Notes: generated from the letters alone by a model not told the origin. DNA of 64,000 nt from Spirochaetia bacterium (GCA_965203905.1 CBDBDQ010000005.1:2560001-2624000); one strand, 5' to 3'. Shown: positions 58,343 to 64,000, counted from the first letter of the stretch. Numbers and translations are program-made.

Positions 58343-58460
58343 CGCGACCGGTAATGTACTGCGCCGCCGCGGTTTTGGTAAGCCCGCACGGGTCGTGGCG
58401 AGCCTGGAACGAGGCCACGAATTCGGTATATTGCTGACTCGGGGCGAGGGACGAGGGACG

Positions 58461-59801
58461 ATGGCGAGCAACATCCTGGATTCGATAGACCGGCTCAAGC
58501 AGGAGCTCGACGAGTTGCGGCCGCTGCCGCCGGAGGTTACCGGCCGGGTGGAGCAGAAGCTGAGGATCGAGTCCAACTACCACTCCAATGCACTCGAGGG
58601 AAATACCCTTACGCTCGGCGAGACCCGCAGCCTGGTACTGCACGGCCTCACGGCGCGCGGCAAGCCGATGCGCGAGCACCTCGACATCGAAGGCTACGAC
58701 CGCGCGGTCAAGGAACTCTCACGGAGGGCGAGCGAAGACCAGCGGCTGAACGAGACGTTCATCCTCAATCTGCATCGGGTGCTGTTGAAGGAACCGTACG
58801 AAGTGGAAACATCCGCTCCAGACGGCAGAAACACGAGACGGCCCATCGCCATCGGCGCGTACAAGACCACGCCCAACAACATCGTGACCTCCACCGGGGA
58901 GACCTACTACTTCACGCCGCCCGAACAGGTGCCGCGGTCAATGAGCGCCCTGCTCGACTGGTACCATGCGCGAGAAGACGAGGGCGAGCATCCGATCATC
59001 ATCGCGGCAATCTTTCACTACCGCTTCGTCCGAATCCATCCGTTCGACGACGGCAACGGCCGCATGGCGCGCCTGCTGATGAACCGGATCCTGCTCGACC
59101 ACGGCTACCCCTTGGCGATCGTGCGGAGGGACGCCCGCGACCGCTACCTGCAGGAGCTGGAGCGGGCCGACCAGACCGAGGATCCCGGCCAGTTCATCGA
59201 CTACATCGCATCCTGCTGCGAATACCCGCTGAATCTCTACCTGCGCGCCGCCCGCGGCGAGTCGATCGAGGACAGCGATGAGATCGATCGCGACATAGCC
59301 CGGTTCCGGCAGGCGCTGGTGGCAGGGACGGGAGCGCACGATCAAGTGGACCTCCGGCACTACATGGCGGCGGTGGTGCTGCCGTTCCATGCCTACTGTC
59401 GTACGAAGTTTCGCGCCCTCACTGCGGACCTGTTCAGCCCGGGCGGGGATACGCCGCCACGGGTCACCGGCCGCAACGCCGACGGGCGCAACTTTCGCCT
59501 CGCTCGCGTCAGCGAAGCCGACAAGGTGCCGCAACGAGCTTCAGACGTAGCCATCGAATTCGGTTTCTCATCCGTGGATTTTCAAAATACCGATTGGACG
59601 ATCAGCACGGTCATCAAGAACACCGTGAGGAGAGGCGAGTACAACTGGGAGCTGATGATCTTCTATGTTGCGCCGGCCGCGGACGACTTCGCGATTCGGT
59701 TGGACAGCGATGATCCGGACGAGTTGAAGACGGCGTTCAACCGGCTGCTGCGAGACATGATGGGGACCATGAAGCTGTGGGATTCCCAGTCCAAGAACTG
59801 A
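58461..59801 (+). CDS. Fic family protein with a C-terminal extension
   Basis: HPFDDGNGRMAR catalytic motif; SNALEGN inhibitory motif. Confidence 0.93.
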   Translation: MASNILDSIDRLKQELDELRPLPPEVTGRVEQKLRIESNYHSNALEGNTLTLGETRSLVLHGLTARGKPMREHLDIEGYDRAVKELSRRASEDQRLNETFILNLHRVLLKEPYEVETSAPDGRNTRRPIAIGAYKTTPNNIVTSTGETYYFTPPEQVPRSMSALLDWYHAREDEGEHPIIIAAIFHYRFVRIHPFDDGNGRMARLLMNRILLDHGYPLAIVRRDARDRYLQELERADQTEDPGQFIDYIASCCEYPLNLYLRAARGESIEDSDEIDRDIARFRQALVAGTGAHDQVDLRHYMAAVVLPFHAYCRTKFRALTADLFSPGGDTPPRVTGRNADGRNFRLARVSEADKVPQRASDVAIEFGFSSVDFQNTDWTISTVIKNTVRRGEYNWELMIFYVAPAADDFAIRLDSDDPDELKTAFNRLLRDMMGTMKLWDSQSKN

Positions 59802-59842
59802 CCGCGCACCGTAATCGCAAGCCTCAGCCCGGCGGCCGAGCC

Positions 59843-61000
59843 TTACTGCGCCAGCGCCCCTTGACCGAGGCGCCGTACGAAGTCGGCGGCGGGGATTATG
59901 TCGATACCGTCCTCGGTGCGGCGGGCGCTTGGCTCCAGACAGACGACGATGCGCAGGCGTACACCGGGATGCTCCTCAAGCAGCGTGCGCAGCCCGCGCA
60001 GATGATCACGGGTGATGCGGGCACTAGCCTTTGCCTCCATAGCAACCTCCATGTCGCCGAGCACGAAGTCCACCTCGATGCCGCTCGGCAGTCGCCAGTA
60101 GGTGAGTTCGAGGTCCCACTCCTGGTACTCGATGCAGGCGGACAGCTCGTGAAAGACCCAGTTCTCGAACGCCTTCCCGTAGAGCTGCGCTCCCGGGGCC
60201 AACTCGCCGCGACGGCTCAGACGGTTCACCACCCCGACGTCGGCGAAGTAGAACTTCGGAGCACCGATCAGGCGGCGCTTGCGGCGCCGGCGGTACGCGC
60301 TCAGCCAGCGACCGAGCAAGCTGTCGACCAGGATTTCGAAGTAGGCCTTGGCGGTGGGGCTGGACACGCCGCACTCGCGTGCGATGTTGGAGAAGTTGAC
60401 CATCTCTCCATCGCTGAGCGCGGCAGCATCCAGGAACCCGGAGAACGCCGGCAGATTGCGCACCAGCCCCTCCGCCGCGACCTCTTCGCGCAGGTAATCG
60501 GCGACGTAGGCGTCGAGCAGGCGGCGCGGACGGGCGGCCTGGTAGATGCGCGGCAGGTAGCCGTGGTTCAGCATCCGATTCAGGTCGAAGGCCGTGCCCA
60601 ACTCGCCGGCGGTGAAGCCGCGCAGCTCGTAGCGCACGGCCCTTCCCCCGAGCAGATTGGCCGCGCCACGGCGCACCTTGCGGGCGCTTGAACCGCACAA
60701 TGCGAACTGAAATCCGCGATTCTCGATCAGCCAGTGCACCTCGTCGAGCAGCGCGGGCACCTTCTGAACCTCGTCGATGACGACCTGTCGTCCGGCAGGC
60801 GCGGTCGCCGATGCCAATTCCTGGCGCAGGTACTCGGGATGCTCGAGATAGCGCCGGAACACGTCGCTTTGCAGCAGATCGACCCAGTGCGCATCGGGGT
60901 AGCTCTGCCGGAGCAGCGTGCTCTTGCCAGCCTGCCGCGGCCCCCACAGAAAGAAGCTCTCGCTTCCAGCCGTCGGCAGCAGCAGGGATCTGTTGAACAT
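59843..61000 (-). CDS. AAA+ ATPase with DUF4143-type C-terminal domain
   Basis: GPRQAGKST, IDEVQK, GSSARK, KFYFAD and EVDFV motifs. Confidence 0.9.
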   Translation of the reverse strand: MFNRSLLLPTAGSESFFLWGPRQAGKSTLLRQSYPDAHWVDLLQSDVFRRYLEHPEYLRQELASATAPAGRQVVIDEVQKVPALLDEVHWLIENRGFQFALCGSSARKVRRGAANLLGGRAVRYELRGFTAGELGTAFDLNRMLNHGYLPRIYQAARPRRLLDAYVADYLREEVAAEGLVRNLPAFSGFLDAAALSDGEMVNFSNIARECGVSSPTAKAYFEILVDSLLGRWLSAYRRRRKRRLIGAPKFYFADVGVVNRLSRRGELAPGAQLYGKAFENWVFHELSACIEYQEWDLELTYWRLPSGIEVDFVLGDMEVAMEAKASARITRDHLRGLRTLLEEHPGVRLRIVVCLEPSARRTEDGIDIIPAADFVRRLGQGALAQ

Positions 61001-61053
61001 GAGATTTAATATATCATGATGATTTGAATGATTACATTAAACTCGACAGGACG

Positions 61054-61401
61054 CTACCTGATGTAGTAGCCGGACACCCGCCAGGCGTCGCGGTCCCACA
61101 TGGCGGTGACGGTCTCAACCGCCGCCTGCTTGTGGGCGTAGGCTGCGGCAAAAGCGAGCACCCAGTAGCGGCCGTCGGGAGCGCCGGGAAGGGTGTCGTG
61201 ATGCTCGGCGGCAGTCAGGGAGCGAGAGTCCAGTTCACCCATCGGACCGAGCGCGGCTCGGAGGGCCTGCGCAAGTTGATCTTCCGTCACGGCGCCGCGC
61301 ATCAGCTCGGCCGCGCTCGACCAACAAGCCGGGTAGTCGCCGGCATCGAGCAGCGCGAGCCACTCGCGTGCGGCTCCCAGCGCCTCGTCTCGCTCAGTCA
61401 T
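61054..61401 (-). CDS. DUF4019 domain protein
   Basis: WLALLDAGDY..W, LPGAPDGRY, ETVT and WRVSGYYIR motifs. Confidence 0.88.
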   Translation of the reverse strand: MTERDEALGAAREWLALLDAGDYPACWSSAAELMRGAVTEDQLAQALRAALGPMGELDSRSLTAAEHHDTLPGAPDGRYWVLAFAAAYAHKQAAVETVTAMWDRDAWRVSGYYIR

Positions 61402-61637
61402 TCGAGCCCCGGGGTCGGGCGCGCGCAGGTCATCCTCATCCCACAGCAGTGTACTCGATAACCCCGCTGTATCACGCAAGCAATGCCACGCGAGGACCCA
61501 GCGCAGATGCCGACGAAAATCTCGACTCTGGCGGTGGCCGCGGCGACCCGCGACGCATATATTGATCGTTCGTTCCAGACTGAGGGCTCCGCACGGGGCA
61601 ATCACGGACGGCCAACGCAACAGCAAGGAGCAGCCCG

Positions 61638-62174
61638 ATGCCGACTGAACAGAACAGGCTTTACCTCTACGAGGCACTCGAACTGCGTGCAGAGTACGAT
61701 GCGCGCATCAAGACCTTGCGCGACTGCCTGCCGGAGACGCGCAGGAACCGGGACCGGCTCGGCATGTACCGCAACGAGGAGCTGCAACTTCGCGCGGCCG
61801 ACGACTTCGACGTGGCCGCGGTTCAGGAGTCGTTGCGGGCGCTGGAGCACAAGCGGCGCAAGCTCAACAACGCCATCCAGCGCGCCAACTACGCGCATAC
61901 CGTGAACGCCACCGGTGAGTTGCTCGACCTGAGCGAAGCTCTGGAGGTGCGCAAGGGTATGTCCGACCGCATCGGTGAGCTGCACACCCAGAGCGTGCAA
62001 TCCGCCTACGTGCGCGTGATCTACAAGGAAGGCCGCGACATCGTGGAGCCCAACGACGCCACCTTCGCCGCCAGCATGGCGCAACTCGAGTCGGTACGGC
62101 GGGCGTTCCGTGACCTCAACCGCGCGTTGCGCGCGGCCAGCTTCACGGTCGTGGTCGACTTCACGGACGAGTAG
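61638..62174 (+). CDS. DIP1984/DUF6847 (septicolysin-like) coiled-coil protein
   Basis: AAGGAG RBS; twice-repeated L.EAL..R motif (LYEALELR, LSEALEVR); KLNNAIQRAN and LNRALRAASFT helices. Family recognised by eye. Confidence 0.72.
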   Translation: MPTEQNRLYLYEALELRAEYDARIKTLRDCLPETRRNRDRLGMYRNEELQLRAADDFDVAAVQESLRALEHKRRKLNNAIQRANYAHTVNATGELLDLSEALEVRKGMSDRIGELHTQSVQSAYVRVIYKEGRDIVEPNDATFAASMAQLESVRRAFRDLNRALRAASFTVVVDFTDE

Positions 62175-62180
62175 GACGCA

Positions 62181-62483
62181 GGGCCACTTGGTGGCGCCGG
62201 AGACCATGAAGACCGATGCAGCGGGTTCGCCTGCTGGACATGGTTTTCGGAGTAGCGGGAAGCCAGAAAAATCGAGCAGGAGACGGGGGAGTAGGTGCGA
62301 GTCTCCCGGCGACGGGAGCGTAGCCCAGTAGATTGGCGACTGCGACAGCGATGAACATAGGTTTGAAACGCCCTAGTTTCCGGTAAAGCCCGGCAGCCGG
62401 GCAGCACCTCAGCGTCACAGCGAGCACAGCCCGAAAGCGAAACAGCATCATGACTCCGAGTCTCCTGCTCTTTCTTCCTCGCG
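62181..62483 (+). ncRNA. Candidate structured ncRNA with an 8-nt periodic AGC array
   Basis: 12-bp stem 62197-62208/62239-62250 (two G-U pairs) enclosing a UUCG hairpin 62219-62236; perfect 11-bp long-range helix 62274-62284/62460-62470; GNRA hairpin 62303-62318; eight AGC units in 62382-62446. Confidence 0.65.
62382..62446 (+). repeat. Eight degenerate 8-nt units, N4-(C/A)-AGC
   Basis: ggtaaagc ccggcagc cgggcagc acctcagc gtcacagc gagcacagc ccgaaagc gaaacagc; AGC spacing 8,8,8,8,9,8,8. Confidence 0.8.
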
Positions 62484-62495
62484 CCGCGAACGGTC

Positions 62496-62978
62496 TCAAC
62501 ACGGAAGGCCGCGCGGGCTCCAGCCTTCGATCAGGGCGGTCACTTCTTCGATCGTGCGATAGCAGGCGGCACGGAACTCCGGAGTGAGGCCGAGTGCGGT
62601 CACCGTGTGCTCGAATTCGTCCTCGTCGAGGACGATCGGTCGTTCGCCGGTCCGACGGGCCACGTCCAGTTCGTAGTCGGTATAGTGCAACTCGCCGTCG
62701 ACAACTTGCGCCGGGCTGGCGATGTGGACGTAGATCTCCGAGAGGGCGCCGGCGTCGTCGTAGAGCTCCAGCAGGTTGTAGGGCCGATCGAACCAGTAGC
62801 AGGCCCGGATGTCGGCCTGTGAGGCCCAGCCGCCCTTGGGCCCGCCAACGGGGTTGCCACGCCGGGAGAACGTATGCACGCCGCGGCTGTCCACCGTTTC
62901 GACCGCGCTCGTCCACCATCGCCGACGGGTGCCATCCAGGTTGAACACGACCACGTTGACTGCATCGCCCGCTCGCAT
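62496..62978 (-). CDS. DUF402 domain protein
   Basis: YWFDRPYN, YVHIASP, YTDYELDV and VLDEDEF motifs. Confidence 0.85.
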   Translation of the reverse strand: MRAGDAVNVVVFNLDGTRRRWWTSAVETVDSRGVHTFSRRGNPVGGPKGGWASQADIRACYWFDRPYNLLELYDDAGALSEIYVHIASPAQVVDGELHYTDYELDVARRTGERPIVLDEDEFEHTVTALGLTPEFRAACYRTIEEVTALIEGWSPRGLPC

Positions 62979-63008
62979 CGCTTTGAGCCACGCTACCGCG
63001 TTGTGGTG

Positions 63009-64000
63009 TCAGGGGATCAGCCGCAGCAACCGGTCGCGCTCGGCCGGGCTGCAGAACGATGCACGGACCGCCGCGCAGGTGAACCCGCGCAACTCCGCCG
63101 GGGAGAACCCCAGCAGCGCCGCGATCGCGTACTCGCGCCCGATCGTGGTGCAGGCACGGACCGGATCGTCGGAACAGATGGCTACCGGAATGCCGTGCTC
63201 CACGAAGCGGCGAACGGGATGGCTCTCGTAACTCTCCACCGCGCCAAGCACGACGTTGCTGGAGAGCGCGCACTCGATGGTAACGCCACGGGCGGCGATC
63301 CGGTCGAGCAGACACGGGTCGGAAGCGCCGGCAAGGGCATGACCGATGCGGGTCAGTCCGGGAACTTCGAGCGCCTCCGCCAGGTGCAGCGCGTTGAACT
63401 CGCCGGCGTGCGCAGAGATGCCCAGCCCCGCGTCGCGCACACGTTCCGCCCAACGGTAGACCACGGACCAATCCGCCGGTTGATCATAGGACGCGGGCAG
63501 GATGTTCAGCCCCGCCAGGCCACGCCGGGCCGCCGCGAGGCAGCGCGGCAGCATGGTGGCGGCCCACTCCGCGGTGGTAGGAGCGACGAGCAGCGGCACC
63601 GCGTGAAACTGCGGGAAACGGCGGCGCACGGTGGCCAGGGATGCGGCGAACCGGTCCAGGAAGTCGTCGCGCAGGATGGTCCGAGCGCCGAACATCACCT
63701 CGACCAGCAACGCGCCGTCGGCCGCGGCTTCGACCAGCACCCGGCCGATCTGGGCCTCCAGGTACCCCGGGTTTTCATCTGCCATCTCGTCCACCCAGGA
63801 GCGGGGAAACGGAAAATCGGGGCCCCACGTCTCCAGGCGTGGCATGCCCGGCGGCAGGTCGCGCATCAGTTCGTGGGCCCTGCGTCGCCAGTCGGTGCTC
63901 CGCCGCCCGGTTCGTTCCTCCAACACCTGCTCAAGCCGCGCGCTCGATTCGGCGTGTACATGGATGTCCGCCTTGGGCAGCGCAGCGATCGCTGGCGCGA
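63009..64000 (-). CDS. Adenosine deaminase family protein (5' end off the window)
   Basis: LPKADIHVH, HAGE, RIGHA, SSNV and SDDP motifs. Confidence 0.88.
   Translation of the reverse strand, partial: APAIAALPKADIHVHAESSARLEQVLEERTGRRSTDWRRRAHELMRDLPPGMPRLETWGPDFPFPRSWVDEMADENPGYLEAQIGRVLVEAAADGALLVEVMFGARTILRDDFLDRFAASLATVRRRFPQFHAVPLLVAPTTAEWAATMLPRCLAAARRGLAGLNILPASYDQPADWSVVYRWAERVRDAGLGISAHAGEFNALHLAEALEVPGLTRIGHALAGASDPCLLDRIAARGVTIECALSSNVVLGAVESYESHPVRRFVEHGIPVAICSDDPVRACTTIGREYAIAALLGFSPAELRGFTCAAVRASFCSPAERDRLLRLIP

Follow-up and report, generated by a model that had tools for sequence, protein, structure and literature searches.

The 178-aa protein encoded at 61638..62174 (+ strand) of the window, as the whole analysed stretch of 64,000 nucleotides from a Spirochaetia bacterium is called here (GCA_965203905.1 CBDBDQ010000005.1:2560001-2624000), is accompanied on its downstream side by a structured non-coding RNA of about 190 nt (62278..62466, + strand) that displays eight short A-N-C motifs at regular intervals in an unpaired tract. 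The RNA is a previously uncatalogued structured RNA family. The best reading of this arrangement, and one towards which the evidence leans somewhat, is that the RNA serves as a dedicated platform offering eight sites to the protein of the neighbouring gene. This two-part reading is drawn from the linkage of gene and RNA, the fixed count of units, the unpaired and G-poor tract, the variable spacers, a motif that switches with the protein clade and the predicted self-association of the protein.

In the window, AGC starts at 62387, 62395, 62403, 62411, 62419, 62428, 62436 and 62444, all eight positions being those reported by the first-pass annotation, and re-listing the starts between 62300 and 62520 reproduced the spacing of 8,8,8,8,9,8,8 as well as the A or C that precedes each of the eight. 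A ninth AGC at 62423, out of register, had been overlooked. The same annotation had held that the pattern fits neither slippage nor coding sequence, and both points withstood inspection. Indeed, Tandem Repeats Finder gives nothing beyond a trace of 2.4 copies of an 8-nt unit (62387-62405, score 31), and since this trace is weak the tract is not a microsatellite, so that an origin by slippage was rejected. A coding origin was rejected likewise, as a period of 8 nt is no multiple of 3 and the overlapping ORFs are long spurious frames of the kind typical of GC-rich DNA. The frequency of AGC in the genome is 0.0204 per position per strand; a scan of the whole genome (7,986,778 bases, both strands) for AGC chains with steps of 8 or 9 found a single chain of 8, which is the present tract, besides one chain of 6 and four of 5. 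Each of the eight AGC positions falls on one of the eight unit columns conserved in the family alignment; what the window shows is therefore an all-AGC instance of an A-N-C track that runs through the family with its count fixed at eight.

Across the family, the track is carried by a single-stranded, A-rich tract (62384..62451, + strand, 68 nt; 42% A, 18% G) that the RNAalifold consensus leaves without pairing. In 66 of 67 sequences the tract measures 65-68 nt, and in the remaining one a hairpin is inserted. Among the 41 representatives, that is, sequences below 90% identity, the mean probability of being unpaired is 0.58 for the tract and 0.35 for the rest of the RNA, the tract having the higher value in all 41. 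In the GC-rich clade to which the window belongs, local hairpins are possible in parts of the tract, and these are unconserved elsewhere. Each of the eight units consists of a near-invariant A (33-41 of 41), then G, sometimes A or C, and finally a C two bases after the A that is conserved in 24-41 of the 41 representatives. The comparison of period, core motif and copy number downstream of homologues, which the first-pass annotation had named as the way to check its idea, gave a consistent answer: a periodic motif is present at the homologous loci of several phyla, in equal register at 8,8,8,8,9,8,8, with the core A-(G/A/C)-C and a copy number of eight. The spacer bases vary freely, as had been claimed from the window, most spacer columns over the 41 representatives being under 0.5 bit.

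The fold that holds this tract was obtained from an alignment of 67 distinct sequences (A2) by RNAalifold and pair counts, and a covariance model built for the family (R1) scores the copy of the window at 127.4 bits. Pairing is seen in 88.7% of the cells of the consensus fold and falls to 32-45% once the partners are shifted by 1-3 columns; both-side (compensatory) changes occur in 27 of 40 pairs, and the observed values were reached by none of 500 shuffles. All elements lie on the + strand. The closing helix comprises P1a, in which 62278-62284 pairs with 62460-62466 (96.8% of cells paired, two compensatory pairs), and P1b, in which 62288-62292 pairs with 62453-62457 (100% of cells paired, two compensatory pairs), and its 3' strands form the 3' end of the RNA (62453..62466). 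Since at least 4 T are present among the 7 bases after the closing helix in 32 of 67 sequences, this helix may double as a terminator. Inside it follows the hairpin P2 (62297..62324), with both-side changes in 7 of 10 pairs and 97.5% of cells paired, capped by a GNRA tetraloop (62309-62312) that reads GCGA, GUGA, GUAA or GCAA across the family. Two H-type pseudoknots come next. The first (62326..62352) is made of the stems 62326-62330/62339-62342 and 62333-62337/62348-62352, with 90.5% and 78.8% of cells paired and compensatory changes at all 5 pairs of the second stem. The second (62359..62380) is made of the stems 62359-62362/62370-62373 and 62365-62369/62376-62380, with 82.8% and 61.2% of cells paired in a region where the alignment is imperfect, and with compensatory changes at all 9 pairs. 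A CCGG junction (62380..62383) leads into the tract; its last three bases, CGG, are invariant (alignment columns 113-115), and the C of column 112 is present in 39 of 41 representatives.

No family of Rfam 15 matched the RNA when the region 60500-64000 was searched by cmscan on both strands at E<=1, and a known RNA family was rejected on this ground. The sole hit in that search was mir-221 on the opposite strand (62189-62263), a chance hit with 19.2 bits against a gathering score of 46.6. RNA-library contigs from four runs match the stretch and cover the RNA overall from 62284 to 62466; one small RNA-library run covers 62284-62466 only, while another covers gene and RNA. These contigs are compatible with transcription and define neither transcription, ends nor abundance. 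One RNA-library contig, of run X20, matches both flanks of 62349-62415 and has 66 different letters in place of the 65 of the window; a related strain is its probable source, the same RNA having diverged there in the second pseudoknot and the first four units.

The linkage between gene and RNA was followed in 86 loci, made up of 5 genome loci, the best 80 of 237 metagenome loci and the window. Both end motifs of the RNA were found just downstream of the gene in 79 of the 86, the window included, and the covariance model located the RNA in 6 further loci, 4 of them cut by a contig end. The RNA thus lies directly 3' of the gene in 85 of 85 loci with downstream sequence, the 86th ending without any. 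Genome searches added 19 of 19 loci, four of them repeating the 85: the RNA stands after each of 9 full-length genes in related genomes (four of which are the same records as loci L001-L004), after 5 of 5 genes of a second phylum and after all 5 divergent genes. The RNA was present in 0 of 27 loci of canonical DUF6847 genes, and the wider DUF6847 family was accordingly rejected as a carrier of the RNA. Throughout these searches no intact protein gene was seen to lack the RNA, and a single intact RNA was seen to lack the gene. This orphan (L095 2100-2690, G041:C105) is the top-scoring copy in the searched relatives, at 169 bits; its gene has been deleted down to the ribosome-binding site and the first few codons, which are fused to the 5' end of the RNA. 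Given that such a high-scoring RNA is found without the gene, the RNA might act or persist alone. Four other loci (L096, L097, L098 and L099, in G027, G021, G023 and G005) hold decayed, truncated RNAs with gene remnants or none. Large internal deletions are found in these RNAs, and the periodic tract and the closing helix are mostly kept; the gene is reduced to its last ~50 codons in G005, and in G027 to its first 19, which stand beside a partial RNA.

The distance between the two partners is short. In 63 of 68 distinct loci, the 5' motif of the RNA (GGAGAC...) starts 9-32 nt past the last sense codon. At the locus of the window, where the tract is placed in a 321-nt gap between two convergent genes, the downstream one being a DUF402 gene on the - strand, the motif starts about 105 nt past the stop codon, and a dispersed hairpin repeat of ~80 nt (62176..62262, + strand) has been inserted between stop codon and RNA. 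This repeat, which folds as a long hairpin, has 21 further copies in the genome at 76-91% identity and is regarded as lying outside the module. RNA-library contigs that match 62176-62262 run on into unrelated sequence, as expected of a repeat.

The partner protein appears to belong to a distant, distinct subfamily of DUF6847. Its match to the Pfam model DUF6847 (PF20935) spans part of the length and reaches 26.1 bits by hmmscan and 27.1 bits in a six-frame search of the genome with the same model, for a cut-off of 27; that to the NCBIfam model DIP1984_fam (NF038048), again of partial length, reaches 30.2 bits for a cut-off of 70. No other Pfam or NCBIfam family was matched, and no recognised RNA-binding domain was found in the protein. 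The AF2 model (pLDDT 87.9) has PDB 3kdq as its sole clear structural match (Foldseek E 4.4e-4, TM 0.67/0.78), and VIA-align to the same entry gives Z 13.0 and rmsd 2.8 over 152 of 152 aligned residues, the next best Z being 8.6; as modelled, the protein has the helical DIP1984 fold. The remaining fold leads were rejected as generic helical hairpins, their Z of about 8 being background for helical proteins according to the tool. The entry 3kdq is an uncharacterised Corynebacterium protein with four chains, deposited by structural genomics. Canonical DUF6847/DIP1984 proteins share this fold, have ~150 aa and a weak sequence match, and lack the RNA downstream; the family, likewise uncharacterised, gives no mechanism. 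Searches with the partner protein returned only DUF6847-like and unnamed clusters in ESM Atlas, and in PHROGs only weak hits to families of unknown or unrelated function. Its homologues number 546 at ~55-65% identity over several phyla, with source names that include Latescibacteria, Chloroflexi and a delta-proteobacterial MAG. The family is small: in a set of 1.84 billion representatives it amounts to 206 clusters at 50% identity, of which many are fragments.

The idea of an oligomeric partner, put forward in the first-pass annotation together with a call for modelling of the oligomer, finds support in a protein-only complex prediction. With four copies of the protein and a separately supplied alignment, a set-up outside the calibration of the tool, the self-association score was 0.65 (median of three runs), compared with 0.00 for the best of three controls. 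In a calibration that used two copies of each protein and its own alignments, the mark of 0.65 was reached by 20 of 30 proteins solved as one-chain pairs and by 1 of 23 solved as single chains. At least 47% of the contacts agree between the complex runs, with a partner pLDDT of at least 66. These values support a protein that, as predicted, associates with itself through a symmetric pairwise interface, the prediction containing no octamer; the remote solved relative 3kdq, with its four chains, could contribute to the score by memory.

A second clade shows that the unit motif changes together with the protein. Distant homologues from the phylum of the window score 73-154 bits, compared with 308 for the window's own gene. 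All 6 of 6 such loci with downstream sequence have the same scaffold (closing helices, junction bases and GNRA hairpin), and the middle domain of their RNA is different and longer. The five clade-2 tracts contain 0 AGC and 5-7 UUAC, in eight registered units with a period of 7-8, the units being UAC with occasional UAU at the same sites; the 67 clade-1 tracts have between 2 and 9 AGC (median 5) and no more than 1 UUAC. Thus, the divergent protein clade goes with UUAC and the first clade with AGC-type units. The comparison is one of 67 against 5 loci, with clade 2 coming from one phylum and order-level searches having added one locus. The proteins of the two clades share 32 conserved positions, of which eight are basic, and differ at 13 further positions that are fixed in each clade, among them 23, 74, 161, 165 and 169 of the protein of the window; none of the eight shared basic residues is among the named residues of the predicted interface. 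By eye, the two C-terminal signatures, LFNRF-like and Y..HH-like, both appear common among 53 full-length representatives at 50% identity. In the sixth distant locus (L105 1292-1492, in G103), that of the most divergent homologue (73 bits), the closing helices and the GNRA hairpin are retained, and the AT-rich tract has only a loose UUAU-like pattern at 12-14-nt spacing; it may represent a third type of motif or a copy in decay.

On the platform reading, a structured RNA would be made together with the 178-aa protein encoded just upstream, and a compact core consisting of the closing helix, the GNRA hairpin and the two pseudoknots would hold a single-stranded loop of ~66 nt. This loop would present the eight A-N-C motifs, AGC in the window, ~8 nt apart, with one protomer reading each motif, or one dimer each two adjacent motifs, and a single RNA would thereby organise a particle of fixed stoichiometry, with eight protomers or four dimers. 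Binding of the motifs by the protein, the stoichiometry and the geometry are what we infer from the comparative pattern; the conserved eight units, the unpaired tract, the motif switch and the self-association fit one unit per subunit. Such an assembly might be a ring or a filament, and it might serve for scaffolding, counting or autoregulation. A rough estimate of size would accommodate it: taking ~5.5 Å per nucleotide of extended RNA and a rise of ~1.5 Å per helical residue, 64 nt would extend over ~350 Å, a length into which the helices of the model, with ~28 residues each, would fit about eight times. A bolder form of the proposal is a new class of ribonucleoprotein, in which the RNA would be a counting template whose closed 66-nt loop recruits exactly eight DIP1984-fold protomers into a ring or short filament, with a code (A-N-C or UUAC) set by a few residues of the protein; this is possible, and we advance it tentatively.

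The module is rare, patchy and often decayed. It is carried by 10 of 61 related genomes, 7 of 301 genomes in the phylum, 4 of 122 in one order and 5 of 401 in another phylum. A tblastn search with the protein returned nothing from 72,556 plasmid and 50,697 phage records, and an origin from phages or plasmids was rejected on that result; a 16-nt pattern of the RNA matched 21 viral contigs, in which the covariance model gave no real copy (best 16.5 bits). Among 108 neighbouring ORFs of ~60 loci, IS200-like transposases, BrnT, AbiEii, PIN, HEPN, Phd and AAA ATPases are found. No third gene is constant there, although AAA ATPases and IS200-like genes recur, and the candidate of a conserved third gene was dropped. 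Y1 transposase genes of the IS200-like kind, some with a DnaA-type C-terminal domain, stand on either side of the module in 8 of the ~60 loci (L007, L011, L020, L022, L057-L059 and L064). Just upstream of the module in the window (58395-61000) lie a Fic-domain protein matching SoFic/PDC-S04 and an AAA/DUF4143 ATPase matching the PDC-S01 candidate defence model, so in this genome the module sits beside defence-type genes. The partner protein itself had no match in a PADLOC search. A DUF4019 gene (61054-61404, - strand) is the divergent upstream neighbour in the window and its closest relatives, L001 and L004, only, and the convergent DUF402 gene is found downstream in the window and in L004 and is not conserved in other lineages. 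Being rare, patchy and decayed, and lying among mobile, toxin-antitoxin and defence-type genes, the locus points to an accessory module, the RNA possibly restraining or arming the protein. A conflict-related or selfish role is plausible.

Several known systems share features with this module. Sponge RNAs such as CsrB and RsmZ carry GGA motifs in hairpin loops at irregular spacing and titrate a global regulator that is encoded elsewhere. They too are non-coding RNAs in which a short, many times repeated motif is offered to several molecules of one protein, whereas the spacing is strict here, the eight motifs are A-N-C in one unpaired loop instead of GGA in hairpins, and the presumed partner is encoded in cis. 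The TRAP protein is a beta-sandwich ring. As described in the passages cited, it has 11 subunits that read 11 GAG/UAG repeats, one triplet per subunit, the RNA wrapping the ring (PMC1474065); its sites are in mRNA leaders and serve attenuation, the period is 5 nt in the model RNAs (GAGUU)11 and (GAGAU)11, and a title cited within the same paper has TRAP repeats separated by two nucleotides (PMC1474065). A homo-oligomer reading spaced triplets with variable spacers on single-stranded RNA, as these passages portray it, would be the common element, which for the present module is a proposal. In contrast to TRAP, eight sites at 8 nt occupy here the closed loop of a free-standing folded RNA encoded with the protein, the protein is predicted to adopt the helical DIP1984 fold, and it has no known ligand or regulated gene. 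Where a TRAP RNA has ~11 (G/U)AG triplets 2-3 nt apart in an mRNA leader, eight A-N-C motifs at 8-9 nt are found, and the neighbour protein is no TRAP (MtrB) ring protein, being helical and outside any other Pfam or NCBIfam family.

HutP comes close to the motif size (3-4 nt) and the period (7-8 nt) of the present module. According to the part of the literature cited, this homo-hexamer reads XAG triplets with 4-nt spacers (a 7-nt period), three per face, with the RNA wrapping the protein, and it is a ligand-dependent antiterminator acting in cis on 3+3 sites joined by a linker of 12-17 nt (PMC2425495). It differs from the present module in that its target, which overlaps a terminator upstream of hut genes, has no structured scaffold RNA, the protein fold is another and an operon is regulated, whereas here the RNA is a dedicated gene; moreover, the eight units form one run without a linker, they read AGC or UUAC rather than XAG, and no hut genes are present. 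The mechanism may thus be like that of TRAP and HutP, while the module is a member of neither, as motif, period, count, RNA context and fold all differ. The repeats of type III toxin-antitoxin systems stand in tandem, are ~36 nt long and precede the toxin gene; the toxin, which is of the ToxN/AbiQ/CptN kind, excises them. In the sources as cited, an endoribonuclease toxin and multiple RNA repeats, each assembling with a toxin, are combined, and in ToxIN the likeness consists of one protein and a repetitive RNA, there in a closed complex of fixed stoichiometry (PMC8860590, PMC5086642). The setting among mobile and defence-type genes is similar as well. Here, by contrast, one folded RNA lies downstream of a protein that is helical in the model, with 8-nt units of 2-3 conserved bases each, no full repeats and no array by Tandem Repeats Finder; the layout that defines type III systems is lacking. 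A match of the ToxN/AbiQ/CptN kind was absent from the Pfam, NCBIfam, PADLOC and fold searches, an absence with which nuclease activity is compatible. A literature search on the protein family, the conserved RNA sequence, the 8-nt periodicity and the spaced motifs found nothing relevant, and supplementary files may hold unnamed candidates.

Other readings differ from the platform in what the eight sites would be for. The locus could be a type III-like toxin-antitoxin or defence module in which the eight sites sequester a protein that is harmful or active only when freed; this takes over the binding step of the best explanation and adds a specific biological role, which we consider rather unlikely. 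Such a role would suit the mobile, toxin-antitoxin and defence-type neighbours, with the SoFic-like and PDC-S01 candidates beside the locus of the window, and the patchy spread (10/61, 7/301 and 5/401 genomes) with its frequent decayed copies. It would also agree with a repeated RNA holding a protein toxin in a cyclic complex, as the cited type III sources present it (PMC8860590, PMC5086642). The pattern of survivors, with RNA lacking the protein and never protein lacking the RNA, goes in the same direction, although it amounts to one intact orphan RNA. However, the order of protein first and RNA second is the reverse of that in type III systems, and the model of the protein shows the helical DIP1984 fold and not an endoribonuclease fold of the ToxN/AbiQ type. 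Its identity of ~60% across phyla is unusually high for such a module, no PADLOC match was obtained, the plasmids and phages searched had none, and 8-nt units in one folded RNA stand in place of tandem full repeats.

A reader other than the neighbour protein is improbable. In this case the motifs would be recognised by a host factor or by tRNA anticodon loops, the neighbour protein acting as a chaperone or processing factor. The triplet size of the motifs invites the thought, AGC being a Ser codon and UAC and UAU being Tyr codons, of which UAU occurs occasionally at the UAC sites of clade 2, and one genome keeps an intact RNA without the protein gene. Yet the middle base of the clade-1 motif may be G, A or C, which is non-synonymous, the motif type tracks the protein clade, and the RNA is always found with the gene or a gene remnant. 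Isolated pairings of 3 nt are weak, and the scan of both strands of the genome found this locus only, with no complementary periodic partner. We see about as little reason to assign the periodic bases to RNA-RNA contacts, by docking of the loop onto the core or by self-assembly of the RNA. To be sure, if the RNA did no more than hold protein, its core, with two pseudoknots, a GNRA loop and numerous invariant junction bases, would be elaborate, and regularly spaced conserved As could make A-minor contacts. Nevertheless, the middle domain differs between the clades while the tract keeps its eight units and swaps A-N-C for UUAC, and docking onto a fixed RNA receptor is therefore hard to reconcile with the data; in addition, no covarying partner columns were found for the unit bases. 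Finally, hardly any credence can be given to a tract that is a template for repeat synthesis, an alternative left standing by the first-pass annotation that gained no support, or an artefact of chance, slippage or coding. Beyond the periodicity itself nothing speaks for it. The spacers are unconserved, so that no defined template product would result, and no tandem array and no period in multiples of 3 are seen. Furthermore, the chain is the only one of its kind in the genome, its register is conserved across phyla, and the earlier remark that no reverse transcriptase is nearby was extended from the locus of the window to the 108 neighbouring ORFs, which contain neither a reverse transcriptase nor a polymerase.

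Collectively, these data describe a pair in which neither partner has a known function, the RNA having no match in Rfam 15 and the sole structural relative of the protein being uncharacterised, and for which comparison between loci gives an unusually clean signal: an obligate linkage across phyla, a count of sites fixed at eight, and a motif that switches with the protein clade. A possible natural specificity code for protein-RNA recognition is thereby indicated, and the locus may be a new kind of accessory module in islands rich in defence and toxin-antitoxin genes. If the RNA were indeed a counting template, this would be the first function for the DIP1984 fold, and the module would provide a natural, re-programmable RNA-protein pair for particles of defined size.
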